A stretch of DNA of 59,909 bases, taken from NCBI GenBank assembly GCA_016296775.1, contig JAEDIE010000004.1, positions 1-59,909 of the forward strand, written 5' to 3'. Position numbers and translations under genes: made by a program. Each line of letters begins with the position of its first letter. Within the stretch, counting starts at the first letter, position 1. The stretch comes from Bacilli bacterium (GTDB taxonomy: Bacteria; Bacillota_I; Bacilli_A; RFN20; CAG-826). Below are positions 11,123 to 31,869 of this stretch, one piece after another. The notes under the pieces were generated by a model, which ran no database searches, had not been told where the DNA came from, and saw only the letters and a list, made by a program, of their open reading frames with translations.

Positions 11123-12257
11123 GGTAATGTTAGGATTAAGCGGTGGAGTTGATAGTGCTGTTGCTGCTTATTTATTAAAAGAACAAGGATACGATGTCGT
11201 TTGTTGTTTTATGAGAAATTGGGATTCTATGGCAAATAATGATGTTTTAGGAAACCCAACAATTAACGATTCAATGTGTCCTCAAGAAAAAGATTATCAA
11301 GATGCAAAAAGAGTAGCAGAAGAGTTAAATCTTCCATTTTTAAGAATTGATTTTATCAAAGAATATTGGGACAACGTATTCACTTATTTTTTAGATGAAT
11401 ATAAAAAAGGAAGAACACCAAATCCAGATATTTTTTGCAATAAGTATATTAAATTCGGCCCCTTTTTAGATTTTGCAAAGAAAAATGGGTGCGATTATAT
11501 TGCGATGGGGCATTATGCAAAAAAGGTAATTGATGAAAATGGAATAGCTCATTTATATAAAGCTAAAGATTTAAATAAGGATCAAACATATTTCTTAAGC
11601 CAAATTAGTGATGATCAATTAAAATCTTGTATTTTTCCTTTAGGAGATTTATTAAAAGAAGAAGTTAGAGATATTGCCAATAAATTAGATTTAGAAACTG
11701 TTAAAAATAAGAAAGATTCTACTGGGATTTGTTTTATTGGAGAAAGAAATTTCAAAGAATTTTTAGAAAACTACATTCCAAGTCAAAAAGGCAATATTGT
11801 TGAGGAAGGAACTAATAAAGTTTTAGGTACTCATGATGGAGTAATGTATTATACAATTGGCCAAAGAAAAGGTTTAGGAATTGGTGGAATTAAAGGAATA
11901 AAAAACGAAGGTGGATGGTTCGTAACAAGAAAAGACGTGAGAAATAATATACTTTTTGTAGCAAATGCTAAAGAGGATGATTATCTTTTGAGTGATTCTT
12001 GTCTAGTTAATAATTTAAATTTCTTTAACGAAAAGATTAAAGAAAACACACATATTTTTGTTAAATTTAGATATCGTCAACAAGATAATGGAGTCACATT
12101 AACTTATGAAAATGATGAAGCTAAATTAATTTTTGATACTCCTTATAAAGCTGTTACTCCTGGTCAAGCTGCTGTATTTTATGATGAAAAGGGTATGATG
12201 CTTGGAGGAGGTTTGATTGATAAAGTTTTCTATAAAGGAAAGGTTAAAAACTATTAA
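11115..12257 (+). CDS. mnmA: tRNA-specific 2-thiouridylase MnmA
   Basis: Start at ATG 11115 after AAGGAG. PP-loop GLSGGVDSAV, plus NPDIFCN and GICFIGE motifs. Confidence 0.93.
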   Translation: MSKVMLGLSGGVDSAVAAYLLKEQGYDVVCCFMRNWDSMANNDVLGNPTINDSMCPQEKDYQDAKRVAEELNLPFLRIDFIKEYWDNVFTYFLDEYKKGRTPNPDIFCNKYIKFGPFLDFAKKNGCDYIAMGHYAKKVIDENGIAHLYKAKDLNKDQTYFLSQISDDQLKSCIFPLGDLLKEEVRDIANKLDLETVKNKKDSTGICFIGERNFKEFLENYIPSQKGNIVEEGTNKVLGTHDGVMYYTIGQRKGLGIGGIKGIKNEGGWFVTRKDVRNNILFVANAKEDDYLLSDSCLVNNLNFFNEKIKENTHIFVKFRYRQQDNGVTLTYENDEAKLIFDTPYKAVTPGQAAVFYDEKGMMLGGGLIDKVFYKGKVKNY

Positions 12258-13213
12258 TGGTTTATTTAGTTTATGGATCTTTAAAAACAAGAGTTAAAAA
12301 ACAAGTATCGATTATTGTTGATTCTATTTTTAAAGATGAAGAAAGAAATGTAGTTGAACTAGATTTTTTAGAAAACGATGTTGAACAAATCATTGATGAA
12401 TGTAATTCTTTTTCTTTAACAAGTTTTACTAAAGTTGTTATAGTTTATAACTCTTTCTTTTTAAGTAGTGAAAGAGGAAAAAAGAAAATAAGTGAAGAAG
12501 AAAAAGAAGCTTTATTAGACTACTTAAAAGAAGAAAATGAAGATACAAGTTTAATTTTTGTTTTGGATTCAAATAAAGTTAACTTAAAAAATGAAATTTA
12601 TAAATATATTTTAGAAAACGGAAAAATTACAGAAATTAAAGACATTCAAAAAAATGAATGGCCTTTATTTGTTGAAACTTATTTTAAAAAGAAAAATATT
12701 AAGATTAGCAAGGATGCATTAAATGAATTTGTTTCTAGAATTAATTCTGATTATGATGCGTTTTTAAATGAGACTCAGAAGCTTCTTCTTTATAAAGATA
12801 ACAACATTACTTTAGAAGATATTAAAACAATAGTAACAAAACCAATGGAAGAAAATAGTTTTGAACTTGTAAATAATTTGCTTTATGGAAATAAAAGTAA
12901 GGTGCTTTCAATTTATCAAGATTTTAAAGTTTTAAACATTCAAGTTGTTAGATTAATTAATCTTTTAACTACAAGTCTTTCATTTTTAGATAAGGTTTAT
13001 TTATTGTTAGATGAAAATAATAGTGAACAGGATATTATTAGAATTTTAAATGCTAATCCTTTCCAAGTTAAAATTGCTATTAGAAACTTAAGAAATATTG
13101 AATATTCAAAAATTAAGAAAGCATTCAACGATTTATATAATTTAGATTATAAAATTAAGCATAGTGAAGTAGATCCAATTTATGCTTTTGAATTATTCTT
13201 AATTAATTTTTAA
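12257..13213 (+). CDS. holA: DNA polymerase III delta subunit (HolA-like)
   Basis: 318 aa. It is convergent with rpsT, the same arrangement as B. subtilis holA-rpsT. The call rests on length, position and general pattern only. Confidence 0.6.
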   Translation: MVYLVYGSLKTRVKKQVSIIVDSIFKDEERNVVELDFLENDVEQIIDECNSFSLTSFTKVVIVYNSFFLSSERGKKKISEEEKEALLDYLKEENEDTSLIFVLDSNKVNLKNEIYKYILENGKITEIKDIQKNEWPLFVETYFKKKNIKISKDALNEFVSRINSDYDAFLNETQKLLLYKDNNITLEDIKTIVTKPMEENSFELVNNLLYGNKSKVLSIYQDFKVLNIQVVRLINLLTTSLSFLDKVYLLLDENNSEQDIIRILNANPFQVKIAIRNLRNIEYSKIKKAFNDLYNLDYKIKHSEVDPIYAFELFLINF

Positions 13214-13901: not shown

Positions 13902-14366
13902 CTATTTCTTTTTGATTTCAATGTAATCTTTTAAGTTATGACAGTTCTTTTTAAATATTTCTAATAATTCACCTTCTTTATCAAGAACAAGATATAAAGC
14001 TTTACCTTTGTTGTTATAAAAAAGCAAAGTTTTATGTTTTAAAGTATATTTTTCATCAATGAAAATAACATTATTGAATTCATAAGTAACACTAGAAAAG
14101 AATTGATAGTGGACTACACTCGTTTTATTAACTACATAATAATTCTTCTTCAAAAGAATAATTAAAAAAACAACAAAAGCAATTAACCAAGCAATAATGA
14201 GAATTACATCTTTTAAAATGTATTCATTTAGCTTTCCATCATCTTTATAAGCCCAAGCAAATCTAGATGAAAAAAGTCCATAAATAGCGAGCAAAACAAT
14301 TAACATGACAGGTATATAAACTTTAATGACAGAAGATGTGCGTGGTTTAAGTCTTTTTTCGTTCAT
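13902..14366 (-). CDS. Small membrane protein (2 TM plus beta-rich C-terminal domain, possibly bacterial PH-like)
   Basis: Two hydrophobic segments (VYIPVMLIVLLAIYGL, VILIIAWLIAFVVFLIILL) are followed by an approximately 80-aa soluble domain. No motif anchor. Confidence 0.5.
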   Translation of the reverse strand: MNEKRLKPRTSSVIKVYIPVMLIVLLAIYGLFSSRFAWAYKDDGKLNEYILKDVILIIAWLIAFVVFLIILLKKNYYVVNKTSVVHYQFFSSVTYEFNNVIFIDEKYTLKHKTLLFYNNKGKALYLVLDKEGELLEIFKKNCHNLKDYIEIKKK

Positions 14367-14410: not shown

Positions 14411-14439
14411 TTTAAAAAACACATGTTTTTAGATATAAT
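14411..14439 (+). promoter_or_regulatory. Candidate sigma-A promoter of the jetABC-like operon
   Basis: TTTAAA (14411-14416), 17 nt spacer, TATAAT (14434-14439), about 25 nt upstream of ATG 14464. Confidence 0.35.
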
Positions 14440-14463: not shown

Positions 14464-15906
14464 ATGTTAAATTTATTCAATATATTACCAGATAATTTTT
14501 TTCAAATATTTAGTGGAAAAAATAGAGAAGTATATGCTCATAGTTTATTAACTTTATTTGATCTTTTTGAAAACGACGAGTCTTTAATTTCTAGAGCAGA
14601 TTTTATTAAATCTTTAAAGGATAAAAACAAAGATTTAGATTCTTTTACTTTTGAAGATGAAGAATTTGAAGATGGAGAAGAAATTATTTTAGATAATTTA
14701 TCTAGTAAAGCTAGTTTTATTTGTAAAAGACTTGAAGAAACTGGTTGGATTGATGTAGCAATTGACCCTGATACATTAGAAGAAACATTAGTTTTACCAA
14801 CCTATTCAATTACAATTTTAAGAGCTTTAAAAGACGTTATTATCGAAGAAGAATCACCATATGTAAGTTTAGTACATTCAACATACTCCGAATTAAAACT
14901 TGAAGATGAAGAAAGAGATGAACTATTCTTCACAACATTAGAAAGAGCATACCAAACTACTAGAAAATTGAAGTTAGAATTAATGACAATTACTAACTCA
15001 ATTAGAATTTATCAAAATAGATTAAGTAAAACTTTCCATACTAATAAAGTTTTACATGATTATTTTGATCTTTATAAATCAAAAGTTAGTGATAGATATT
15101 ATCACCCACTTAAAACTTTTGATAGTGTCGCCAAATTTAAACGCCCAATTATTAAAATTTTAGAAAAATGGATTAATGATAAAGATGCTAGAGAAAAATT
15201 AGTATCTCAAGGAAGCATAATTCATCATGAAACCAACAAAGAAAAAGTTGAAAATGATGTTATTACGATGATTAATTACATTTGCGATACTTACGAAACA
15301 ATCAATAATTTAATTAGTAACATCGATAAAGAAAACAATCTTTATACTAAGAGTAGTGCAAATAAGATTTTATATTTAAATAACACTGATAAAACTATTA
15401 AAGGTCACTTAGAAAATATCTTTAAGCATTATGGTCAAAGTTTAAATAGTGGCAGAAATCTTTCAAGAATTCTTTCTCAAATGCAAGATTGTTTATATTA
15501 CTATGAACAAGGTTACCTTGATTCAAGAAGTGTTACTTTACCACTTTTAAGAAAATATAGAGAAGATGGAACTCCTTTAAGTATTGTTGATTTTGATGAA
15601 GCTAGCGATATTATCATGCAAAACTTTTTAAACGAAACATTAGATAACTATTCTGATGAAAGAGTTTATGAGTTTATGAATAGTGCTTTTAATGGAGAAA
15701 GTGAAGTTAGAAGTGAAGATATTCCATTATTAAATCACGATGCTTTTGTTTTATTGATTCTTGCTACAGTTAAGAAAGATGATCCAGATTGTTTCTATTA
15801 CATCGAATACGTCGATTCTAATAAGATATTGAATCATGGATATATAATTCCTAACTTTATATTTCATAAAAAAGACGATTTAAATGTTTCAAAGGAGGAT
15901 GAATGA
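14464..15906 (+). CDS. JetA/MksF-like (kleisin-like) subunit of an SMC-like complex
   Basis: 480 aa, first gene of a coupled triplet. Size and position match JetA (DUF3375-type, recalled from memory). Acidic linker stretches are present. No catalytic motif, so the assignment is by architecture. Confidence 0.55.
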   Translation: MLNLFNILPDNFFQIFSGKNREVYAHSLLTLFDLFENDESLISRADFIKSLKDKNKDLDSFTFEDEEFEDGEEIILDNLSSKASFICKRLEETGWIDVAIDPDTLEETLVLPTYSITILRALKDVIIEEESPYVSLVHSTYSELKLEDEERDELFFTTLERAYQTTRKLKLELMTITNSIRIYQNRLSKTFHTNKVLHDYFDLYKSKVSDRYYHPLKTFDSVAKFKRPIIKILEKWINDKDAREKLVSQGSIIHHETNKEKVENDVITMINYICDTYETINNLISNIDKENNLYTKSSANKILYLNNTDKTIKGHLENIFKHYGQSLNSGRNLSRILSQMQDCLYYYEQGYLDSRSVTLPLLRKYREDGTPLSIVDFDEASDIIMQNFLNETLDNYSDERVYEFMNSAFNGESEVRSEDIPLLNHDAFVLLILATVKKDDPDCFYYIEYVDSNKILNHGYIIPNFIFHKKDDLNVSKEDE

Positions 15907-16541
15907 TGTTTAGTGAACAATTTGCTCAATTAAGTGGTTCTGATCAAACAAGATTTGCTGAAATTGTTAATAAAATTCTTTTAAAAGGATTTGTTGTTAG
16001 AGACATTTTTGATACAAGAGAAAAAATTATTAGAGTTAATCCTGATTTTAGATTTGTTGAAAGACAATATGATTTGATTAACGATTATTTAAAATTTTCA
16101 GGTTGGGTTTTAAATAAAGATTTAATTTTAGGTGTATTTTATTTAACCAATACCTTTGAAGATAACAGAATTAGACTTGATAGAGAAACTTCCTTAATTT
16201 TATTTACTTTAAGATTAATTTATGAAGATGAAAAAGAAGAAGGTGGAAGTTCTTCTACTCAATCAATTTATATGACTACTCCTTCATTAATTAAAATGAT
16301 GGTAGATCATGGTATTACAATGCCAGGAAAACGTTTAACTGGTAGATTAATTGGAAGATCATTAAGATTTTTAGCTAATCACAATATTATTTCTAAAGTT
16401 AGTGGAAGTTATGATGAAGGAAATGTTTCGTTCTATATTCTTCCAAGTATTAAATATGCAATTGATAACGAAAAGATTGTTGCGATGAGTAACGCTCTTG
16501 ATCAACTTAATAATCAAGAGGAAGAAAGTTTAATTAAATAG
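15903..16541 (+). CDS. JetB/MksE-like (KITE-like) subunit
   Basis: 212 aa, with an ATGA overlap onto the upstream gene. Size, position and general pattern (GFVVRD...DYLKFSGWVLNKD...GVFYL) are reminiscent of DUF4194/MukE-like proteins. Confidence 0.55.
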   Translation: MMFSEQFAQLSGSDQTRFAEIVNKILLKGFVVRDIFDTREKIIRVNPDFRFVERQYDLINDYLKFSGWVLNKDLILGVFYLTNTFEDNRIRLDRETSLILFTLRLIYEDEKEEGGSSSTQSIYMTTPSLIKMMVDHGITMPGKRLTGRLIGRSLRFLANHNIISKVSGSYDEGNVSFYILPSIKYAIDNEKIVAMSNALDQLNNQEEESLIK

Positions 16542-16549
16542 GAGGGCTT

Positions 16550-19500
16550 ATGAAACTATTAACTAAAGTAAAAATTATAAATTGGCATTACTTTTGGGAT
16601 GAAACTATCGAAGTTAAGCCTCTTGTTTTCTTAACTGGTGCTAATGCTAGTGGTAAATCAACCTTAATTGATGCTCTTCAAATTGTCCTTTTAGGCGATA
16701 CAACTGGAAGATATTTTAATAAAGCTGCTATGGATAAATCAGCTCGTACTTTAAGAGGTTATCTTAGAGGTGAAATTGGTGATACTATCGATGGTGGATT
16801 TAAATATTTAAGAAATGGAAGATTTACTTCCTATATTGCTCTTGAGTTCCATAATGATGTTGATAATAGCGACTTTGTTATGGGTATTGTCTTTGATTCT
16901 TTTGAAGATGGAACTGAAGAACATAGATACTTCTGTTTAGATGATAAAATTCCAGAAAATGAATTCATTATGAATAGAATTCCAATGGAATATAAGACAT
17001 TAAGCAAATATTTTAGTGAATTTTATAAAGAAAAATATAAATTCTTCGATTCGAATAGAAGTTATCAAGACTTCTTAAAGAAGAAATTTGGCGGATTAAA
17101 AGATAAGTATTTCTCACTTTTAAAGAAAGCAACGTCATTTAACCCAATCACTGATATTACAACCTTTATTACTGAATATGTTTGTGATCCTCAAGCTAAT
17201 ATTAATCTTGATGTTTTACAAGAAAATATTCTTGAATATAAACGTCTTGAAGAAGAAGCAAAAGCTATCGAATCAAGGGTAATGGATCTTGAAGAAATAG
17301 AAAAAACATATCAAGAATATTTAAAAAATAAAAAGAATTTAACAATTTCACAATACATTGTTGAAAGATGTGACCTTGAAAGAAGCAAAGAAAGATTAAA
17401 AGCTTATCAAGCTCAAATTGATAAAAATAAAGAACGTATTAATCAAATTGACCTTGAACTTGCTGATTTTAGTGAAAATCTTGCTACATTAAATAGAAAG
17501 AAAGTTGCTTTAATTCAAGATAAAGCATCAAATTCAACTCAAAAATTAACTGAAGAATTATATAGAACAAAACAAGAAACAGAAGCTGAAATTAAAAATG
17601 TCGAAGCTATTGAACAAAAACTTGTTTCCTCATTAAATATTGTTTTAACTTTATATATTAATGCTTCAAAAGGAATTATCGATAATTTAAGTGCTTTCGA
17701 TGTTGAATCAGTTGAAGAAGATAAAGCTGAAGAAATTATCGCTCTTATCGAAGAAAGTAAGAAAACATATGCTTATGTAATTGATTTTAAATCTAAATAT
17801 ATTAAAGATTTAAATTTAATTTCTAAAGAATTATTAGAAGAACTTAAGAAAGTAATGGTAAGTTTCAAACAAAAAGTATCTTCTTTAGCTATCACTTTAG
17901 CTCGTACAATTTCAAATATTGATAAGAAAATTAGAGCTTTAAAAGATGAAGAACTTAACATGAAACAAGGCCAAAAACCTTATGCCAGTGTTCTTGTTAG
18001 AATTAAAAATGAATTAGAAAAAATGTTAGAAGAAAAATATGGAAAACATATTGAAGTTAATATTTTTGCTGATTTAATCGATATAAAAGATATGTCTTGG
18101 AGCAATGCTATTGAAGGTTATCTTTCAGGACAAAAATTCAATCTTTTTGTAGCTCCTAAATATTATATTGATGCTTATAACTTCCTCAAAAAGTTACTTA
18201 GTATGTATCAATTTTATGGAACTGCCTTAGTCGACCAAGAAAGAATTATTGAAAAAGATTATAAATGTGAATATAACTCACTTGCTGAAGAAATCGTTAC
18301 TGATGATGAAGGAGCAAGAGCTTATTGTAACTTCTTAATTGGTAGATTATATAAAGCAAACAATGTTGTAGAAGCTAGAAATTATGGAAATGGTATTACT
18401 AAAGAATGTGATTTATATAGAAATTATGTTCTTACACGTATCAATCCTCGTTTATATCAAGAATCTTTCATTGGTAGAGCCTTAAATGATCGTTTCTTTA
18501 TTGAAAAGAGTAATCAACTTAAAAATAATATCGCTAACGCTTCACTTTATAGAAAATTAAGTGAACTTATTACTGAAGCTAACAATCTTGAAGTTCTTTC
18601 AAGCGGTGATATCGAATCAATTTTAAAAGATATTAATAAACTTAACTCTATCGATGGATTAAAAGCTACCTTAAAATATGTTAATGATGAATTATCAACT
18701 CACGATACAACTTTACTTGAATCATTAGATAGAAGAATTAAAGATGTTGAAGAAGATATCGCTTCTATTGAAAAAGATAGAGAAACATCATTACTTGAAA
18801 AAGGACAATTAAATAACGAAATTCAAACTATTATTGATGAAAAGATCGCTAATGAAAAAGCAAATATTAAGACAATTGAAGATAATTTGAATTCAAAATA
18901 TGATCCATTCTTAGTTAATGATGAAGCTCTTCCTATTTTAAATAAACAATTTGAAGAAAAGAAGACAATTCTTGAAATTTATCAATCATTCTCAGTTTCA
19001 AGTTCAAGACTTCTTTATACAGTTAACTCAATTTTCTCTCAACTTACACGTTTAAGAAGAGATTATGTAAGTAAATATCATCTTACATATCAAGTTGAAG
19101 CTTTAACTAATGAAGAATTTGAAAACGAATTAAGCGACTTTAAAGAAGTTAAATTACCTTCTTATAAAGAAAAGATTGAAGATTCATATCATAAAGCAAC
19201 TCAACAATTTAAGGATGACTTTATCTTTAAACTTAGAGGAGCTATTGAAGATGCTCAAGATCAAATTGAAAATCTTAATGTTGCTTTAAAACAATCTTTA
19301 TTTGGTAAAGATTTATATAGATTTACTGTTAAACCAAATCAACAATATCGTAGATTCTATGACATGTTGATGGACGACTTAATTCTTAATATTGAAAAAG
19401 ATGAATCTGTATTTGTTGAAAAATATAAAGATACAATGAACGAATTATTCCAACAAATTGTTGATGATGGTAATTCCGATGCTAAGAAGAGTAATGAATT

Positions 19501-19921
19501 ATTAGCTAATGTTGAAAAATTCACTGATTATCGTTCATATCTTGATTTCGATCTTATTGTTACTAATAAAGAAACAAATGAAGAACAAAGATTATCCAAG
19601 ATGATTAAAAAGAAATCAGGAGGAGAAACTCAAACTCCATTCTACATTGCAATTCTTGCTTCATTCTCTCAACTATATCATGCTAACGAAGAAGGAAATA
19701 TTGCCAATACTACAAGATTGATTATTTTTGATGAAGCTTTCTCAAAGATGGACCCAACAAGATTTAAAGAAGCTGTTAGACTTTTAAGAAAATTCAATCT
19801 TCAAGTTATATTAAGTGCCCCTAGTGATAAGGTCGGTAAGATCTCTGAATTAGTCGATGAGACTTTAGTTGTCTTACACGATAAAAATAGAAGTTTTGTA
19901 AAACTATTTGCTAAAGAATAA
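16550..19921 (+). CDS. JetC/MksB-like SMC-family ATPase
   Basis: 1123 aa. N-terminal INWHYF...LTGANASGKSTLIDALQIVLLGD (Walker A at 16637-16663). Long E/K/L-rich coiled-coil arms. Central hinge-like WSNAIEGYLSGQKFNLFV. Signature SGGETQ (19616-19633) and Walker B LIIFDE (19718-19735). Confidence 0.8.
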   Translation: MKLLTKVKIINWHYFWDETIEVKPLVFLTGANASGKSTLIDALQIVLLGDTTGRYFNKAAMDKSARTLRGYLRGEIGDTIDGGFKYLRNGRFTSYIALEFHNDVDNSDFVMGIVFDSFEDGTEEHRYFCLDDKIPENEFIMNRIPMEYKTLSKYFSEFYKEKYKFFDSNRSYQDFLKKKFGGLKDKYFSLLKKATSFNPITDITTFITEYVCDPQANINLDVLQENILEYKRLEEEAKAIESRVMDLEEIEKTYQEYLKNKKNLTISQYIVERCDLERSKERLKAYQAQIDKNKERINQIDLELADFSENLATLNRKKVALIQDKASNSTQKLTEELYRTKQETEAEIKNVEAIEQKLVSSLNIVLTLYINASKGIIDNLSAFDVESVEEDKAEEIIALIEESKKTYAYVIDFKSKYIKDLNLISKELLEELKKVMVSFKQKVSSLAITLARTISNIDKKIRALKDEELNMKQGQKPYASVLVRIKNELEKMLEEKYGKHIEVNIFADLIDIKDMSWSNAIEGYLSGQKFNLFVAPKYYIDAYNFLKKLLSMYQFYGTALVDQERIIEKDYKCEYNSLAEEIVTDDEGARAYCNFLIGRLYKANNVVEARNYGNGITKECDLYRNYVLTRINPRLYQESFIGRALNDRFFIEKSNQLKNNIANASLYRKLSELITEANNLEVLSSGDIESILKDINKLNSIDGLKATLKYVNDELSTHDTTLLESLDRRIKDVEEDIASIEKDRETSLLEKGQLNNEIQTIIDEKIANEKANIKTIEDNLNSKYDPFLVNDEALPILNKQFEEKKTILEIYQSFSVSSSRLLYTVNSIFSQLTRLRRDYVSKYHLTYQVEALTNEEFENELSDFKEVKLPSYKEKIEDSYHKATQQFKDDFIFKLRGAIEDAQDQIENLNVALKQSLFGKDLYRFTVKPNQQYRRFYDMLMDDLILNIEKDESVFVEKYKDTMNELFQQIVDDGNSDAKKSNELLANVEKFTDYRSYLDFDLIVTNKETNEEQRLSKMIKKKSGGETQTPFYIAILASFSQLYHANEEGNIANTTRLIIFDEAFSKMDPTRFKEAVRLLRKFNLQVILSAPSDKVGKISELVDETLVVLHDKNRSFVKLFAKE

Positions 19922-19932
19922 AGGAGAAAATT

Positions 19933-21063
19933 ATGTCTAGGAAAGTGGTAGCAATGATTTTAGCAGGTGGAAAAGGAACTCGTCTTCAAGCATTAACGAA
20001 GAAAGTTGCTAAACCTGCCGTCTATTTTGGAGGAAAATATCGTATTATTGACTTCTGCCTTTCAAATGTTGCTAATAGTTCAATTGATTGTGTTGGCGTT
20101 TTAACCCAATATGAATCAGTTGTCTTAAATAGCTACGTTAGTAATGGTGAGATTTGGGGATTTGATGGAGTTAACAATAAATGTGTTGCTCTTCCACCTC
20201 GTCAAACTGAAGAAGGTGCTAACTGGTACGATGGAACTGCTGATGCTATCTATAAAAATATAGATTTCCTTGATGGAGAAGATCCTGAATATGTTCTCAT
20301 TTTAAGCGGAGACCATATTTATAAAACAACATATAAAGAGATGTTAAATACTCATATTAAAGCTAAAGCTGATTGTACAATTTCAGTTTTAGAAGTTCCT
20401 TATGAAGAAGCTTCTCGTTTTGGTATTTTAGAAGTTGATAATGTCGATAATATCACTAAATTTGTTGAAAAACCTAAAGAACCAAAGAGCAATTTAGCTT
20501 CCATGGGTGTATATATTTTCACTTATAAATCATTAAGAAAAGCTTTAATTGAAGATCATAAAGATCCAAAGAGTGAACATGATTTTGGTAAAAATATTAT
20601 CCCTTATTTATTAAAACAAAAGAAAAAATTGATCGCATATCGCTTTAAAGGATATTGGAAGGATGTTGGAACATTAAGTTCACTTCATGAAGCAAACATG
20701 GAGTTACTTCCTTCAAGAAGAACAAAAGATACAATTATATTTAATACTTTCCCACAGGTTTTTTCTCAAGATACAAAATCACATCCTCAATTTATTGGTA
20801 AAAATGCCACTGTTGAAGATTGTTTAATTAACCAAGGAGCTTTAATATTTGGCTCAGTTAAGGGAAGCGTTATTTCAAACGAAGTCACTATTGAAAGTGG
20901 AGCAGTCGTTGAAAATAGCGTCCTTATGCCTGGAGTTGTTGTTAAGAAAAATGCTGTTGTTAAAAATGCAATTATTGGTCCTAATACCTATATTAATGAA
21001 AATGAAATTGTTAATACTGGAGAGGAAATTATTCTTATCGATAAGGAAAGGGGATTACAATAA
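19933..21063 (+). CDS. glgC: Glucose-1-phosphate adenylyltransferase
   Basis: ILAGGKGTRL nucleotide-binding motif, FGGKYRIIDF, C-terminal left-handed beta-helix repeats. SD AAGGAG. Confidence 0.95.
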   Translation: MSRKVVAMILAGGKGTRLQALTKKVAKPAVYFGGKYRIIDFCLSNVANSSIDCVGVLTQYESVVLNSYVSNGEIWGFDGVNNKCVALPPRQTEEGANWYDGTADAIYKNIDFLDGEDPEYVLILSGDHIYKTTYKEMLNTHIKAKADCTISVLEVPYEEASRFGILEVDNVDNITKFVEKPKEPKSNLASMGVYIFTYKSLRKALIEDHKDPKSEHDFGKNIIPYLLKQKKKLIAYRFKGYWKDVGTLSSLHEANMELLPSRRTKDTIIFNTFPQVFSQDTKSHPQFIGKNATVEDCLINQGALIFGSVKGSVISNEVTIESGAVVENSVLMPGVVVKKNAVVKNAIIGPNTYINENEIVNTGEEIILIDKERGLQ

Positions 21064-22178
21064 TGTTACATAAAGTTTTAGCTTTAATTGATTTACATAA
21101 TTCTAGTAATTTAGGTTTATTAACTGAAAATAGAATTGAAGCCGTTACAACATTTTTAGGAAGATACACTTTTATCGATTTCATGCTTTCTAATTGTACT
21201 AACTCTGAAATTGATAATATTGCTGTTTTGTGTAAAGAAAAATCAAGAAGTGTTGCAAAACATATTTCTAGAGATTCAATTTATTTAAAAAATAGTAAAA
21301 CTGGATTCTTAAAAGTTTTAAATAGTGAAAATGGTATTTCTAACCCATTATTTAATACAGATGTTAATAATATTAAAGAAAATGATTATATTCTTTACGA
21401 TAACGATTCTGAATTTGTTATTGTTGCTCCAGTTCATTTCATTTTAAATGTTGATTTTAATGAAATTATTGAAAAACATATTGAAAGCAATTGTTTATGT
21501 AGTGTTGTTTATAAAGTTAGCGATGATAGCGAGATGTTCTCTAACTGTGAAAAACTTACAATTGATGCTATTGGAAATGTTCAAAAATTTGAACAAATTA
21601 CTAGAGAAGATAAAACTAAGTTTAATGTTAATTTAGGAATTTATGTATTTAATAGAGATTTCTTCAATAGATTAATTCAAGAAGGATATAAGATTAGTGA
21701 AATTTATACTATTGATGACTTAGTTAAATATCATGCTAAATATAAGATTAATGTTAATACTATTGAATTTAAAAAAGATGTATATTGCTTTAATTCACTT
21801 GATAAATATTTTAAATATTCGATGGAAATTTTAGATAATCCAACCGGATTCTTAAATTATGATGATGCTTTGATTTATACAACTACTCATAACTCCAGAC
21901 CTGTCTTATATGGAAGTAAATCATATGTTCGTTCTTCATTAATTGCTAATGGATCAACTATTAACGGAACAGTTAAACACTCAATTTTAGCTCGTGATAT
22001 CACCATTGAAGAAGGAGCAAGTGTTGAAAATTGTATATTATTTAGCCATACAGTTGTTAAAAGTGGTGTACATTTAAAAAATGTTGTTTGTAATAAGCGT
22101 GTAGTTTTTAAAAATCCTCAAAGTTTAGAAGGTTCATTAGAAACTCCACTATATATTAAAGAAGGGAGTATTATTTAA
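21063..22178 (+). CDS. glgD: Glucose-1-phosphate adenylyltransferase regulatory subunit GlgD
   Basis: GlgC paralog lacking the GGxGxRL motif. It sits in the Firmicutes glgC-glgD-glgA order and has a TAATG overlap with glgC. Confidence 0.85.
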   Translation: MLHKVLALIDLHNSSNLGLLTENRIEAVTTFLGRYTFIDFMLSNCTNSEIDNIAVLCKEKSRSVAKHISRDSIYLKNSKTGFLKVLNSENGISNPLFNTDVNNIKENDYILYDNDSEFVIVAPVHFILNVDFNEIIEKHIESNCLCSVVYKVSDDSEMFSNCEKLTIDAIGNVQKFEQITREDKTKFNVNLGIYVFNRDFFNRLIQEGYKISEIYTIDDLVKYHAKYKINVNTIEFKKDVYCFNSLDKYFKYSMEILDNPTGFLNYDDALIYTTTHNSRPVLYGSKSYVRSSLIANGSTINGTVKHSILARDITIEEGASVENCILFSHTVVKSGVHLKNVVCNKRVVFKNPQSLEGSLETPLYIKEGSII

Positions 22179-23629
22179 TGAACATATTAATGGCAAGTAG
22201 TGAATCCTTACCATTTTCAAAAACGGGGGGTCTAGCTGATGTAATTTTCTCATTAAGCAAAGAATATGTAAAATTACATCACAATGTTTCGATTGTTTTA
22301 CCAAAATATAAAACAAATAAAGTAATAAAAGGATTAAAGTTAACTAAGATTTTTCAGCTTGATGTTAAGATGAATTGGAGAACTATTCCTACAGCTGTTT
22401 ATCATTGTTACTATTTAGGAATTGATTTTTATTTCATCGAAAATCAAAAGTACTTTGAAAGAGATAGTTTATATGGATTTTATGATGATGGAGAAAGATT
22501 TGCATATTTTACAAATGCAACAGTAAAATTAATTAGTTCTTTACCATATAAAATTGATGTAGTTCATATTCATGATCATCAGGTTGGTTTACTTCCTTGT
22601 GTTGTCAAAACTTTACATAGTGAAGAAGAAATCTTTAATGATATGAAGTTTGTTTTAACAATTCATAATCCTGAATTTAAAGGATATTTTAGTAAAGATT
22701 CTTTATTTGATTTATATAATCTTCCTATTAGTTTATTTGATGAAGGAAAAATTAGACTTGATGGACAAGTTTCTACTTTAAAAGCTGGAATTGTCTTTGC
22801 AGATAAAATTACAACTGTTTCACCTACACATGCTAAAGAGTTATTAACATATGAAGGTAGTAAAGGATTAAATTTTGATTTAAATTTAAGGAAAAATGAC
22901 TTTGTTGGAATCTTAAATGGAATGGATAATGATTTCTTTAATCCTAAAAAAGATGAATATATCTTTAAAAACTATGGAATTAAAGATGTTTTTAATGGTA
23001 AGAAAGAAAATAAAATTGAATTTTGCAAAAAATATAATTTAGATCCAACATTGCCTTTATTTGTTGTTGTTTCTAGATTATCAAGTCAAAAAGGAATTGA
23101 TTTACTTTATCCAATGATTGAATTTTTATCATATACTGGATCTAATGTAGCAATTGTTGGAAGTGGAGAAAAATCAATTGAAGATAGATTCTTAGAATTG
23201 AGTAGAGTTAATTCAAAACATATCTTTATATATATTGGATATAATGAAGAATTGGCTCATAAAGTATATGCAAGTAGCGATTTCTTGCTTATGCCTTCAA
23301 GTTTTGAACCATGTGGATTATCTCAAATGATAGCTCAAAAATATGGCTCACTTCCTGTTGTTAGAAGAACTGGTGGATTAGCTGATACTGTTGATTGTTT
23401 TGAAACTAGCGATGAAGAAAAGAAAGCTAAAGATATTACTAAAAATGGATTTGGTTTTTCTTCATATAGCATAAGTGAAGCAATTGTAACTGCTGCTAAA
23501 GCTATGAATATTTATAGTGGAAAGAAAGAAGTTTATAAGAAAATGGTTAAGAATGCTATGAAGCTTAATCATACACGGGATAATAGTGCAAAAAAATATA
23601 TTGCATTGTATGAATCTATTCAAAAATAA
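22178..23629 (+). CDS. glgA: Glycogen synthase (ADP-glucose type)
   Basis: N-terminal SESLPFSKTGGLADV (KTGGL motif), GT5 architecture, C-terminal EPCGLSQM...GGLADTV. Confidence 0.95.
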   Translation: MNILMASSESLPFSKTGGLADVIFSLSKEYVKLHHNVSIVLPKYKTNKVIKGLKLTKIFQLDVKMNWRTIPTAVYHCYYLGIDFYFIENQKYFERDSLYGFYDDGERFAYFTNATVKLISSLPYKIDVVHIHDHQVGLLPCVVKTLHSEEEIFNDMKFVLTIHNPEFKGYFSKDSLFDLYNLPISLFDEGKIRLDGQVSTLKAGIVFADKITTVSPTHAKELLTYEGSKGLNFDLNLRKNDFVGILNGMDNDFFNPKKDEYIFKNYGIKDVFNGKKENKIEFCKKYNLDPTLPLFVVVSRLSSQKGIDLLYPMIEFLSYTGSNVAIVGSGEKSIEDRFLELSRVNSKHIFIYIGYNEELAHKVYASSDFLLMPSSFEPCGLSQMIAQKYGSLPVVRRTGGLADTVDCFETSDEEKKAKDITKNGFGFSSYSISEAIVTAAKAMNIYSGKKEVYKKMVKNAMKLNHTRDNSAKKYIALYESIQK

Positions 23630-23667
23630 TTATATTTTTAATTTATAAATTAAATGATATAATTTTG

Positions 23668-23860
23668 TTGCGTTGAGAAGAACAAGTAGTTATTGTTTGA
23701 ATCTTGTAGGGAGAAGAGAATAGTGAGACCTCTTTAGATAGAACAATAATGAATTCACCTTTGAGCAAAACGTTATACTGGCGTTAAGAGTAAAATTAAG
23801 TGCGAAAGAATTAGGATGGTACCGCGGGTTAATCTCGTTCCTTGTCTAATTCTTTTTTTA
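23668..23860 (+). promoter_or_regulatory. T-box riboswitch leader (Phe specifier) controlling pheST
   Basis: Stem I start GTTGCGTTGAGAAGAA, AGAGA/GTGA elements, candidate specifier UUC followed by A (23754-23757), T-box core GGATGGTACCGCG (23814-23826). Terminator arms AGAATTAG / CTAATTCT are followed by a T-run ending near 23859. Confidence 0.85.
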
Positions 23861-28403: not shown

Positions 28404-31400
28404 TTATTTATTGTCTAAATCTTTCTTTTCTTTTTTCTTTTTAATTAATTTCTTTATGAAATGATATGCTAATATACCAATAGTGATAAGAACAGCGGCA
28501 ATAGTAAAACCTGAATAATCGATCCAAACATCTTTTACAAGTCCGCTTCTTCCTTCGACAAATATTTGTATTAATTCTGTAAGAGAAGCAATACTTAATC
28601 CTTGTAAGAAATTGATTGGAATAGAATAGAACCATTTTTCTTTATCAAATTGAAGCATAAAGAATAATGTTGAACAAATTCCTAATACAAAGAATGCTCC
28701 AAAATGACCTAACGATTTTCTAATTAATAATAAGAAATTTGATATGTTTTCCTCGTTAATTAAAGGTTTTTTATCTACTTGAATTTTAATAGTTAATTTA
28801 AATGGACCGTTTTTAGTCTCATTATTTGAAGGAGTAAAACTATCATTAACACTTAAATAAATTTCTGTTGATCCTTGTTGGATGGTTGTAATTGTTCCAT
28901 CATTTCCTATTTCAAGAATTTTATCTTCCGTTTCTTTTTCATCTTCTTTAGAAGAATATGTTACCATTTTAAAAGTTGTATCTTCTGTAAAGTTAGGAGT
29001 AATTTTAATACTACTCGCTGTATAAATATGAAGAGTTCCGTCGTCATCTTTTTTGTTAATTTTTCCTCTAACAATTAAGTTATCTTCTTGTAATTTGATG
29101 ATGTTATATACATTAACTTGAAATGTTTTTTCAACTAATGAAATTTTATCTTTAATTGTAATTAATGATTTACCAGCTTTTTTAAGAGTTAATTTATTAT
29201 CTTCTCCTACACTTACAATTGTAGGGTTGGAAGAAGTGATAATAGTAGAAATTGCAGTAGGAGTTTCTTGATAATCATAATTTAATTCTAGATCAATTAC
29301 TTCTGAAGTGAATCTTTGATAAATTTGTTGATGATTTTCATTAATATTAGTTGAAACTAATTGTTCATCATTTACTTTTAATGTGTAGTTTAAATCATCA
29401 ATTGTTATATGAGAAGAAGTAATAGTGAATGTTTTAGTATAATCGATGTCATTTAACGCTACTAAATAAGAAGGTTTAATTTTAATAGTTAATTTTCCTT
29501 CTTTTAAAGGAGTTATATAAAGAACTGTTCTTGTATTAATGTTTTCATATTTAGTTTTAAAATTTGGTGAAGATGTAACTTCAAGTCCATAAATATATGG
29601 GAAAGTTAAAGTGTACGATTTAGATATTTTTGTTTCGATATTATAGTTATCTTCCATTAATTCTAAAGAATCATCTAGTGCGTTTGTATCTAATGAAATA
29701 GAAGGCTTATAAACTGGAGCAGTAACTCTAAAGGTAAACTCGTTATTATTGTAATAAGTAGTAAAGTTTGAATCGATGTGAACAAAGTAAAACTCGACAA
29801 TACACTTATTTTTAAAAGTAAAATTATTTCCACTAATTGTTACATAATTAGTAAATTTTGATGAATCTATGTACATATTTTCACTAGGAGAAAATAATGA
29901 ATTAATCTTAATTTGTTTATTTTTTGGAGCGATATTTGTATTTGTGCCTTCAATTGAAGAAATAGTGAAGTAGTTATCTAAGTTATATGTTTTATTAATA
30001 ATCATATAATTATTACCATCATTTTCTTCGAATTCATTTAATGAGTTTTCATAATTAATTTTAGTAATTGAATATTGAATTGGTTCTGGTGGAAGAGGTT
30101 TTTCTTTAACTGTAACTGTAATACTTGAAGAAACTTCATTACCTTTAATATCTGTTAATTTCATAGTTAAAGTTGAAGTTCCAACCTTTAAAGCTTTGAT
30201 TTTTCCTGCACTTGTTACACTAACAACAGAAGGATCGCTTGAAGTAAATGTTTTAGTGAAGTAAGAAGAATTATTAATATATGAATTATATGAATAGTTA
30301 TATGGTGATATTTTATTAGTTTTTAATGTCCCAGTATAATCTACTGTTACAGAAGCTGTGTTGGTAAATGATCCTAAAGTTAAAGCAAATGAATTAATTT
30401 TAATAAATTCAACTTTAATTTGTTTTATTGCGCTAAATTCAGGATATTTAACACTTCTTATAATTACATTTGTTGTACCTTCTGCTTTACCTTCGATTCC
30501 TGAATTTGTACTATTAATCTTAGCTATTGATGTATCCTCGATAGAGTATTCAATATCTTTATAGGTTGGAATAGACGTTCCATTATTGTATTTTGGTAAT
30601 AATTTACTATCTGAAAAAGAAAGAGTGGTTGCTAATGAGATTGAGGGAATTGAACTTGAAGAGAATTCAAGTTTTTCAAAAGGAACGAAAGTATTAGGAT
30701 TATCAATAATTTTAACTTCAATTGATGTATTAATTGATGAATAAATTGTTATTTCTTCATAATCAGAGGAAGTTTTTGAAGGAATAATTATATTATCTGA
30801 AATAGAAAAATTATTTGAAGAATAAGAAAAATTATATGTTTTATATGTTGCATTTGTTGGTAAAAATTCAACATTAATTTTATATTGAGTATCAAGCCAT
30901 AAATCATATTTGTTATCGCTATTTTTATTTAATTCAACAATATTTCCATCTTGTACATAACTTAAAGTTACATTAATTGATTCGACATTTACTGGTAAAA
31001 CATTAACTCTAAAAGTGTCGGTTAAATCAGGATAATCTAAATTGGAAATAGAGAAATCAACTTCACCCTCTTTTATAAAGCGAATATACCCAGTATCTGA
31101 AATACAAGCAATAGATGTATCTGAAGAAACAAATTTTAAAGATTGGAAAGTGGCATTTTCAGGAGTAACGCTTGTTTCAAGTTGATAGGTATCCCCGACA
31201 TAAGCTTTATCAATTTTATTATTAATAGAAACTGAGGTAGGTTCTATTGCAATGCTAGTATCTCCTCCAGCATCATTAATAATATCAGCAATTCCTCCTC
31301 CAACAGTATTAGATTGATTGGCACTTTTTACTCCATTCATTGAAGCTTCAACTATTAAAGTAGTTGCACAACCAATGTAAGCAACTAAACATAAATAAGT

Positions 31401-31439
31401 AAAAATTTTCTTAAATTTAACAGGATTGAATTTCTTCAT
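28404..31439 (-). CDS. Large surface protein: N-terminal anchor, multiple Ig-like (Big_2-type) repeats, C-terminal VanZ-like membrane domain
   Basis: Start taken at MKKFNPVKFKK (31439). Hydrophobic N-terminus IFTYLCLVAYIGCATTL. At least 5 Big_2-like strand motifs (e.g. VTSAGKIKALKVGTSTLTM, VGEDNKLTLKKAGKSLITI, IGNDGTITTIQQGSTEIYL). C-terminal GHFGAFFVLG...LTELIQIFVEGRSGLVKDVWIDYSGF is VanZ-like (about 28450-28760). Confidence 0.75.
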   Translation of the reverse strand: MKKFNPVKFKKIFTYLCLVAYIGCATTLIVEASMNGVKSANQSNTVGGGIADIINDAGGDTSIAIEPTSVSINNKIDKAYVGDTYQLETSVTPENATFQSLKFVSSDTSIACISDTGYIRFIKEGEVDFSISNLDYPDLTDTFRVNVLPVNVESINVTLSYVQDGNIVELNKNSDNKYDLWLDTQYKINVEFLPTNATYKTYNFSYSSNNFSISDNIIIPSKTSSDYEEITIYSSINTSIEVKIIDNPNTFVPFEKLEFSSSSIPSISLATTLSFSDSKLLPKYNNGTSIPTYKDIEYSIEDTSIAKINSTNSGIEGKAEGTTNVIIRSVKYPEFSAIKQIKVEFIKINSFALTLGSFTNTASVTVDYTGTLKTNKISPYNYSYNSYINNSSYFTKTFTSSDPSVVSVTSAGKIKALKVGTSTLTMKLTDIKGNEVSSSITVTVKEKPLPPEPIQYSITKINYENSLNEFEENDGNNYMIINKTYNLDNYFTISSIEGTNTNIAPKNKQIKINSLFSPSENMYIDSSKFTNYVTISGNNFTFKNKCIVEFYFVHIDSNFTTYYNNNEFTFRVTAPVYKPSISLDTNALDDSLELMEDNYNIETKISKSYTLTFPYIYGLEVTSSPNFKTKYENINTRTVLYITPLKEGKLTIKIKPSYLVALNDIDYTKTFTITSSHITIDDLNYTLKVNDEQLVSTNINENHQQIYQRFTSEVIDLELNYDYQETPTAISTIITSSNPTIVSVGEDNKLTLKKAGKSLITIKDKISLVEKTFQVNVYNIIKLQEDNLIVRGKINKKDDDGTLHIYTASSIKITPNFTEDTTFKMVTYSSKEDEKETEDKILEIGNDGTITTIQQGSTEIYLSVNDSFTPSNNETKNGPFKLTIKIQVDKKPLINEENISNFLLLIRKSLGHFGAFFVLGICSTLFFMLQFDKEKWFYSIPINFLQGLSIASLTELIQIFVEGRSGLVKDVWIDYSGFTIAAVLITIGILAYHFIKKLIKKKKEKKDLDNK

Positions 31440-31869
31440 AGAAATTACTAACATTTAAATTATGAAACATTTAAAGTAAAAAAGAAATAAATATTTAATT
31501 AAAATATTTATGAACATTATTTAAAATTTATATGTTTCTAACATACATTTTATAAAAATATATTGGAAATCATATGTTTTTTTAAAATTAATGTCAAAAA
31601 TAGTTGCTAAATCATATAGTTTTTTATGATTAAAAATATTAAATTAGTATTTTGATTTATACTTATTTAAGAATGGTTAGAATTTATAGGTTAAATTTAT
31701 TTTTAAATGAAATTAGTGAAGTTTTAAAAAAACATATGAAATCCCAGTTATTTTAGTATTTTTATTTTTTATTCGAAAAATTTAGTAAATTGTTATTTGT
31801 TAATTGTTTATAGTTTAGGTTAGTTTTTGGTTAAATGATCGTTACTAAAAATAATATTTTTACTTTTTC

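Follow-up and report, generated by a model that had tools for sequence, protein, structure and literature searches.

A JetABC operon of type I Wadjet ancestry without the JetD nuclease, kept in the core genome of a lineage of low-GC Bacilli

The stretch of 59,909 nt considered here (contig JAEDIE010000004.1 of the Bacilli bacterium assembly GCA_016296775.1; hereafter the window, with positions given on its + strand unless stated) carries, between positions 14464 and 19921, three adjacent genes, jetA, jetB and jetC, that encode an SMC (structural maintenance of chromosomes) complex of the Wadjet family, and no gene for JetD, the Toprim nuclease of Wadjet. We propose, with a probability of about 0.6, that it is a functional JetABC complex derived from type I Wadjet, that JetD was lost once, and that the complex has been inherited vertically as a core operon with the glycogen genes glgCDA and has a chromosomal role. 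The locus holds an intact SMC/kleisin/KITE triplet with invariant ATPase motifs, it is under strong purifying selection, and there is no nuclease at it.

The three genes and the motifs of the SMC subunit, where "clade" stands for the window's own group of relatives described below, are as follows (ORF, open reading frame).

14464..15906, + strand: jetA, kleisin subunit, 480 aa (ORF, Pfam, PADLOC and fold)
15903..16541, + strand: jetB, KITE subunit, 212 aa (ORF, Pfam, PADLOC and fold)
16550..19921, + strand: jetC, SMC-family ATPase, 1123 aa (ORF, PADLOC and Pfam)
16637..16663, + strand: JetC Walker A motif GANASGKST, residues 30-38; G30, G35, K36, S37 and T38 invariant in 42 non-redundant clade sequences
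18098..18151, + strand: JetC hinge block WSNAIEGYLSGQKFNLFV, residues 517-534; W517 and E522 invariant
19616..19633, + strand: JetC ABC signature SGGETQ, residues 1023-1028; invariant in the clade and in the outgroups
19718..19735, + strand: JetC Walker B motif LIIFDE with the catalytic Glu, residues 1057-1062; D1061 and E1062 invariant

The three proteins are the JetA (kleisin), JetB (KITE) and JetC (SMC ATPase) subunits of type I Wadjet. JetA matches Pfam PF18982 (JetA) over its full length at 1.7e-85 and PADLOC JetA1 at 3.5e-117; JetB matches Pfam PF13835 (DUF4194) at 3.9e-14 and PADLOC JetB1 at 1.1e-66; JetC matches PADLOC JetC1 over its full length (E=0, 1099.7 bits) together with Pfam AAA_29 and SbcC_Walker_B. 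The PADLOC family E-values, from 1e-66 to 0, are far beyond chance, and NCBIfam has no specific model for any of the three. An earlier note on this DNA, made from the sequence, had read the genes as an SMC operon of the JetABC/MksFEB type, which family, fold, synteny and selection now support, and had expected profile matches of the DUF3375, DUF4194 and JetC/MukB types. It had also suggested that the first two might be diverged or new kinds of partner, and here it was mistaken, both being ordinary type I JetA and JetB by Pfam and PADLOC.

Neither single-sequence nor profile searches of JetA and JetB against the sequences of the Protein Data Bank (PDB) gave a match. Because the sequence profiles of JetA and JetB miss the solved E. 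coli and P. aeruginosa chains, the folds were compared. The AlphaFold2 model of JetB (pLDDT 82.7) has as its top matches JetB of P. aeruginosa (8dk1, 4.4e-6) and of E. coli (8as8_C), followed by MukE and Nse1/Nse3. The model of JetA (pLDDT 71.7) is flexible, and its significant PDB fold matches are all kleisins, namely Wadjet-II JetA (2.4e-7), MukF and E. coli JetA (6.3e-4), with low global TM-scores, as expected of an extended multi-domain kleisin. It is noted that a lack of kleisin or KITE similarity in the first two proteins would have spoken against the assignment; the folds match those of JetA and MukF and those of JetB and MukE, respectively. For JetC, the family profile matches E. coli JetC (8as8_A) at 2e-25, with the hinge block WSNAIEGYLSGQKFNLFV aligning with the E. 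coli hinge segment WRGAIERAVGSNRLRILV.

We now consider the absence of JetD. A hidden Markov model (HMM) of JetD was built from the ORFs that lie 3' of jetC in Clostridia-type relatives, the two seeds that were checked being JetD1 by PADLOC (1e-134 and 9e-124) with the Pfam JetD_C domain. The model detects jetD directly after jetC in 16 Clostridia-type outgroup loci. By contrast, in the six-frame translation of the window it finds neither a match nor a remnant (E<=10), and it has no match in any of the 67 related loci of the window's clade, many of which were searched together with 8-10 kb of DNA to either side, a further one being on a contig of 1.08 Mb. There is no fourth gene at the locus, just 11 nt separating jetC from glgC. 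The earlier claim that JetD/MksG is missing is thus upheld for this locus, and a jetD that is a conserved partner elsewhere, which the earlier note had named as what would count against it, was not seen adjoining the triplet in the 67 relatives. Several ORFs were considered as jetD and rejected. In the deeper branches, ORFs of 144-161 aa and 284-348 aa that separate jetC from glgC were taken as possible jetD genes or remnants, but are membrane proteins without a match to the JetD model; a 419-aa ORF (locus L056), also without a match to the model, is probably bile-salt-hydrolase-like, as judged by its sequence alone; and a 404-aa ORF after jetC (locus L075) is a Cas3/DEAD-like helicase by PADLOC.

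The absence of the gene is accompanied by a change in JetC at the place where JetD would dock. In the cleavage-competent structure of the E. coli complex the aCAP of JetD docks on the larynx of JetC, with F919 of JetC entering a hydrophobic pocket of JetD, and the mutation F919E abolishes restriction (doi 10.1101/2023.11.03.565488). We compared site-wise conservation between 16 JetC proteins from jetD-bearing loci and 42 non-redundant JetC proteins from nuclease-free loci, and the only column that is always occupied in the former and gapped in every one of the latter lies in the larynx loop.

19388..19408, + strand: remodelled larynx docking loop of JetC, N947-IEKDES953 (group comparison and alignment to E. 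coli F919)

In all 16 jetD-bearing proteins the loop reads G-[Y12/F2/H1/N1]-N-[I/L/V]-x-S, whereas in all 42 nuclease-free proteins the Gly is deleted and the loop reads x-G(33)-[E20/D11/K5]-[D28]-[E25/D14], being one residue shorter and acidic; twelve residues past the loop there is a fixed His-to-Tyr change in the nuclease-free JetC. When the profile of the jetD-bearing group is aligned with 8as8_A, the E. coli segment ...NAAR-F919-V falls on the [I/L] of the loop, in an alignment of about 20% identity (E 4e-6) that is possibly off by about 2 residues, and the F919-aligned position in the nuclease-free clade is Glu, Asp or Lys. As far as this alignment goes, nature has made in this clade a change equivalent to the inactivating F919E, with the hydrophobic residue that docks JetD replaced, and we infer that the nuclease-free complex would no longer be able to recruit JetD. 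Since the docking loop is shortened and acidic throughout the clade, it argues against a jetD that is encoded elsewhere. The new acidic loop, being conserved, may itself be a new interface.

The next point is how the cassette has been inherited. At least 90 loci were collected in two genome scans, 67 of them in the window's clade (68 with the window); the representative search was exhaustive, and the counts out of 67 and 68 given in this text are loci among the matches listed. As the second scan re-found only 2 of the 10 in-clade genomes of the first, complete scan, the true size of the clade is probably several times that of the sample. In the representative search JetC identity runs from 50 to 62% within the window's own group, followed, after a gap, by 40% and 35-38%. 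In a neighbour-joining tree with Kimura distances the 68 nuclease-free JetC proteins form one clade (100/100 bootstrap) that is sister to the jetD-bearing Clostridia group. Within the clade, JetC identity to the window ranges from 36 to 93% and the G+C content (GC) of the locus from 0.23 to 0.57. Some members are named Candidatus Onthovivens by NCBI, a genus that we take to belong to the GTDB order RFN20, and one such organism is present on 830 public contigs.

The features that flank the cassette, and that are referred to in what follows, are these.

13902..14366, - strand: 154-aa membrane protein, divergent from jetA (ORF; two predicted N-terminal transmembrane segments)
14411..14439, + strand: best sigma-70-like promoter match upstream of jetA, TTTAAA-17-TATAAT, consensus match 10/12, in the 97-nt divergent intergenic region
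19933..23629, + strand: glgC-glgD-glgA, glycogen synthesis (Pfam NTP_transferase in two proteins, Glyco_transf_5)
23664-23845, + strand: T-box leader, Rfam RF00230, 98.1 bits, directly after glgA and upstream of pheS-pheT

The gene glgC immediately follows jetC in 40 of the 67 relatives, the median distance between the two being about 27 nt, and lies at most five genes downstream of it in 57 of the 68 loci, which answers the proposal of the earlier note that conservation of the locus be checked. Upstream of the jet loci there is either rpmB or the cluster rsmB-rlmN-prpC-prkC-rpe, which precedes rpmB in Bacillus too, and leuS and pheST are also among the core neighbours. (Genes of about 250, 295, 220 and 228 aa upstream in L003-L010, considered as xerD-scpA-scpB-rluB, are by Pfam rlmN, a PP2C phosphatase, a Ser/Thr kinase and rpe.) The ORFs of jetA, jetB and jetC are full length in essentially all relatives. 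Between the window and a 93%-identical relative, the ratio of non-synonymous to synonymous substitution rates (dN/dS) is 0.073 for jetA, 0.084 for jetB and 0.084 for jetC, and the neighbouring genes, at similar dS, mostly lie in the range 0.06-0.19, a yceD-like gene at 0.42 being the one outlier. Moreover, pairwise JetC identity tracks that of LeuS among 31 genomes (Spearman 0.87, Pearson 0.90), and the closest plasmid-borne and phage-record relatives are 28.5% and 24.8% identical, respectively.

The surroundings in the window have the same character. Upstream lie ftsA, ftsZ, ABC transporter genes, dtd, mnmA, holA, rpsT and rpmB (both on the - strand) and the 154-aa membrane protein gene; downstream of glgC, glgD and glgA and the T-box leader lie pheS, pheT, nusG, rplKAJL, rpoBC, cmk, der and gpsA, and still further dnaD, nth, recU, ispF, gltX and rpoE, some of these names being read from the translations, without a family scan. 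GC is 0.25-0.28 throughout the jet region with no compositional break; the region has no tRNA gene, its only flanking repeats are chance AT-rich matches, and there is no integrase or other mobile-element gene among the window ORFs scanned, every one of which is a housekeeping gene. The flanking genes named in the earlier note are as it gave them, and its view that the system is resident among core genes and is not a mobile island is borne out; a sporadic triplet flanked by mobile elements would have contradicted it, and what is found is one clade, core synteny and a correlation of JetC with LeuS.

The layout suggests how the genes are expressed. The jetB ATG overlaps the jetA TGA in an ATGA at 15903-15906; the jetB stop TAG (16539-16541) is overlapped by an AGGAGG at 16540-16545 and is followed after 8 nt by the jetC ATG at 16550; and glgC starts at 19933, 11 nt past the jetC stop, preceded by its own AGGAGA. 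On the ATGA overlap, the AGGAGG at the jetB stop and the two gaps, as on the ORF lengths and the coordinates of Walker A, SGGETQ and LIIFDE, the earlier note was exact. From jetA to the 3' end of glgA the terminator scan has no match. Because of the spacing, the lack of terminator-like sites and the conservation, jetABC and glgCDA are probably a single transcription unit, which would start from the promoter-like site at 14411-14439. That site is suggestive as a consensus match only, promoter-like matches upstream of jetA being fewer than in shuffled sequence; both scans are weak evidence, and the six-gene operon is drawn from spacing and conservation. The T-box leader marks the 3' boundary of the jetABC-glgCDA block.

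Based on these results, our proposal is as follows. A single loss of the JetD nuclease would have occurred in the common ancestor of what is now a large group of uncultured, low-GC Bacilli, after which the jetABC cassette would have been passed on vertically as a core-genome operon joined to glgCDA. The JetABC dimer-of-dimers would load on DNA and extrude loops using ATP, as the solved JetABC complexes do, with no cleavage following. The role under selection would be the management of the host chromosome, in long-range folding or segregation, and not the cutting of plasmids. Loop extrusion without cleavage is here argued by analogy with the solved complexes, and a role in chromosome organisation or segregation is, by the same kind of argument, the most likely one, with indirect support from the core synteny, the vertical inheritance and the housekeeping-like constraint. 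Two nuclease-free complexes give the analogy: in P. aeruginosa the jetD-less MksBEF makes long-range cis contacts and supports segregation (doi 10.1101/2020.05.18.101659), and M. smegmatis MksB is a second jetD-less example with a chromosomal role (PMC11329512).

Several points weigh against this proposal. The case for a chromosomal role is one of analogy; all trees were built by neighbour-joining alone, largely from metagenome-assembled genomes (MAGs); and, as the JetD search covers the window and the related loci, an unlinked jetD or another effector could be encoded elsewhere. The change to an acidic loop could have another cause, besides the possible shift of the F919 alignment noted above, and the N-terminal helix of JetB, the second proposed contact of JetD, is kept. 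We had expected that helix to be lost; it is retained, with W2->F2 as its only fixed change. Finally, a simple condensin model accounts neither for the tight coupling to glycogen genes nor for the membrane proteins that recur beside the cassette.

These membrane proteins, and the genes found after jetC in other loci without jetD, deserve a description of their own. The 154-aa protein belongs to no Pfam or PADLOC family, and an orthologue stands in the same divergent position in 24 of the 67 relatives. It may share the divergent promoter region with jetA and, as a recurrent neighbour of jetA, is a candidate member of the system only. In deeper nuclease-free branches one or two membrane proteins lie between jetC and glgC, one a multi-pass protein of 144-161 aa, the other a protein of 284-370 aa with N-terminal transmembrane helices, a member of which has a weak DUF3137 match (30.8 bits); such ORFs occur in L055, L058 (11423-11857 and 11976-12908), L059, L061 and L063, and also in L036, L037, L049, L052, L057, L073, L081, L085 and L087, and they have apparently been lost in the window's sub-lineage. 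Helicases follow jetC elsewhere: the Cas3/DEAD-like one noted above (L075:11508-12722, Clostridium sp. CAG:568) lies inside the clade, and a UvrD/GajB-like helicase of 693 aa stands right after jetC in two Bacilli MAGs outside it (L084:11520-13601 and L093), which lack jetD yet retain the hydrophobic docking loop (GYSV). These helicases may be alternative effectors of JetABC. Peptococcaceae bacterium BRH_c4b falls inside the jetD-bearing group and has likewise kept a hydrophobic loop (GHNV); its jetC is followed by an ORF of 560 aa (L090, about 11300-13000) that the JetD HMM does not pick up and that may encode an effector of a divergent or fused kind.

The alternative that survives best, doubtful as we hold it to be, is that the system is still immune and has become non-nucleolytic or been re-armed. 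JetABC would then sense small circular DNA by complete loop extrusion, and would either silence, compact or sequester it, or hand it to an effector that docks on the acidic loop, such as one of the adjacent membrane proteins or an unlinked enzyme. Silencing, compacting or sequestering of circular DNA is what has been proposed for Smc5/6. This alternative can point to the fact that all three proteins score best against type I Wadjet defence models and that the docking loop has not degenerated and has instead been replaced by a conserved acidic motif (G in 33 of 42, E or D at the next three positions), and it would give a place to the divergent 154-aa protein, to the multi-pass and DUF3137-like proteins of the deeper branches and to the helicases of the other jetD-less loci. 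However, defence systems are typically sporadic and evolve fast, whereas the present cassette holds its core-gene context throughout a deep lineage and changes at the pace of housekeeping genes; no neighbouring membrane protein matches a PADLOC defence family and none is universally present; and the literature that we consulted describes no non-nucleolytic activity of Wadjet.

It is far less probable that the system is an ordinary four-component Wadjet, with jetD at a distant site of the genome or on a contig that the assemblies lack. Most of the relatives are indeed fragmented MAGs, the JetD search covers loci and not whole genomes, and JetB keeps the helix proposed to touch JetD. On the other hand, jetD directly follows jetC in the 16 sister loci and never in the 67 loci and the window, so that jetD would need to have been unlinked since the base of a clade that spans 36-93% JetC identity. 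Moreover, wherever jetD is found the docking loop has a Gly and hydrophobic residues, invariant or conserved, and the clade has lost them; its F919-aligned position holds Glu, Asp or Lys, and F919E abolishes restriction in E. coli. That the locus is a decaying remnant of a Wadjet island without current function, as the lack of a component essential to the known activity could suggest, is hardly credible, because the clade spans a very deep divergence with which neutral decay is incompatible, and the ORFs are full length in essentially all relatives, with dN/dS of 0.07-0.08 and motifs that are invariant in 42 sequences.

Returning to the proposed chromosomal role, a stronger form of it would be that nuclease-free JetABC has replaced Smc-ScpAB as the sole chromosomal condensin in this lineage of small-genome gut Bacilli, which we regard as unlikely. 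No smc, scpA or scpB is present among those ORFs of the window that were scanned, nor in the related loci, which total about 1.8 Mb. Two scans with Smc DNA patterns, with at least 120 matches listed in each, share no assembly with about 66 public nuclease-free JetABC assemblies; as the scans sampled a small part of the collection, with a generic AT-codon Walker-A probe and a probe for a compact Smc group that is specific for a different (RF39-like) lineage, this is uninformative and is not evidence of absence. Comparison of the window with the smc neighbourhoods rpsO-pnp-...-smc and rnc-smc-ftsY gave no usable synteny. If the sole-condensin form were true, what is thought to have yielded MukBEF in gamma-proteobacteria would have happened a second time, independently and much more recently, and the fusion to glgCDA would couple the dosage of the condensin to carbon-storage physiology; if the genomes lack Smc-ScpAB, just one other case is known in which the universal bacterial condensin was replaced.

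The same scans brought up the compact Smc just mentioned, of about 972-996 aa compared with about 1180 aa in Bacillus and Clostridia, in a large group of low-GC gut "Bacilli/Tenericutes" MAGs. Its N-terminal motif is ...NIVDAVRWVLGEQSVKSLRG..MSDVIFSGSKSR, and it occurs in L097, L104, L105, L107, L119, L131, L132, L134, L144, L153, L171, L189, L193, L198, L199, L201 and L202 and in about 100 loci among L216-L317. No assembly with this compact Smc is among the sampled JetABC-bearing ones, and the protein is clearly distinct from JetC.

A few other observations concern the window and the assemblies. The window appears to be a complete contig, as its JetB is listed in the protein database on one of exactly 59,909 bp. 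Its only long - strand gene (28404-31454) encodes a protein of 1016 aa, with a Big_2 Ig-like domain at the N terminus and a VanZ-like membrane domain at the C terminus, which diverges fast, being 67% identical to its counterpart in a relative whose JetC is 93% identical. The contigs of the clade in "cleanbin" assemblies (L017, L021, L023, L024, L028, L030, L054 and L085) bear organism names that look wrong: the contigs with jetABC-glgCDA have titles such as Lachnospiraceae bacterium GAM79, Parabacteroides goldsteinii, Slackia isoflavoniconvertens, Phocaeicola dorei, Gemmiger formicilis and Prevotella sp., and are of low-GC Bacilli type. There are also "binchicken" MAGs of the nuclease-free clade that are labelled Staphylococcaceae. 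On the 1.08-Mb contig (L012:50-1922, ENA ERZ2606006 NODE_12), about 6-8 kb upstream of jetA and unlinked to the jet cassette, an integrase gene lies between two inverted genes for type I restriction S subunits, in a phase-variable arrangement like an hsdS shufflon.

What is new here is the independent loss of jetD in a Bacillota type I lineage with a preserved sister group, the lineage-wide vertical fixation in small-genome gut Bacilli including Candidatus Onthovivens, the visible remodelling of the docking loop and the fusion to glgCDA; we found no published account of the independent loss, the lineage-wide fixation, the loop remodelling or the glgCDA fusion in the literature. It has been speculated that a defence system resembling Wadjet, once it had lost its nuclease, gave rise to the housekeeping condensins of the Muk/Mks type, and the known Muk/Mks examples are too diverged to show how that shift occurred. 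The present clade is still unmistakably type I Wadjet, with a jetD-bearing sister at 35-40% identity and a discrete, testable change at the docking site, making the transition from defence to residence experimentally approachable and the clade a tractable intermediate between Wadjet and condensin. Automated defence finders will miss these loci or label them incomplete Wadjet, and to treat them as anti-plasmid immunity is probably wrong.

Finally, we compare the locus with the known systems. With Smc-ScpAB it shares the general architecture, that is, an ABC head, a long coiled coil, a hinge, and kleisin and KITE partners. It differs in that JetC reaches only 15.7 bits against PF02463 (SMC_N), whose cut-off is 40, in that the Walker A motif is GANASGKST versus GPNGSGKSN in Smc, and in that the partners are JetA and JetB versus ScpA and ScpB.

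MukBEF, the condensin of gamma-proteobacteria, is likewise a housekeeping, vertically inherited SMC/kleisin/KITE complex, which has been proposed to descend from a JetABCD-like ancestor, and the JetB and JetA models match the MukE and MukF folds. This likeness is at the level of fold only, as PF04310 (MukB_N) scores 21.7 bits on JetC, under its cut-off of 23, and the Pfam families of MukF and MukE have no match among the three proteins.

Type I Wadjet JetABCD (E. coli GF4-3 and P. aeruginosa PA14; PDB 8as8, 8bfn and 8dk1-3) has the same three families in the same order with the same translational coupling, its solved subunits match the KITE and kleisin folds, the head, hinge and ATPase motifs of JetC align with those of E. 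coli, and canonical jetABCD is what the sister clade carries, at 35-40% JetC identity. By contrast, the window's clade has no jetD, its JetC larynx loop is shortened and acidic, its JetA and JetB have diverged beyond the reach of profile matches to PDB sequences, and it stands in vertical core synteny with glgCDA, whereas type I Wadjet occurs sporadically in defence islands and on plasmids. Because both the JetD gene and the docking residue are lacking, we do not file the locus as a Wadjet defence system.

MksBEF without MksG (in P. aeruginosa, and the MksB operon of M. smegmatis) is likewise a Muk-like three-gene kleisin/KITE/SMC system with no Toprim nuclease and is, by analogy, the closest functional counterpart of the JetABC of the window's clade. 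Both of those organisms also keep Smc-ScpAB. While MksBEF has been described as scattered across the tree by horizontal transfer, the loss described here took place independently within the Bacillota type I Wadjet lineage, whose jetD-bearing sister group can still be identified, and its product is fixed across a deep lineage of small-genome gut Bacilli in an operon-like block with glycogen genes. The locus fits the MksBEF-type nuclease-free Muk-like complex, a kind that has been known since the first description of the family.

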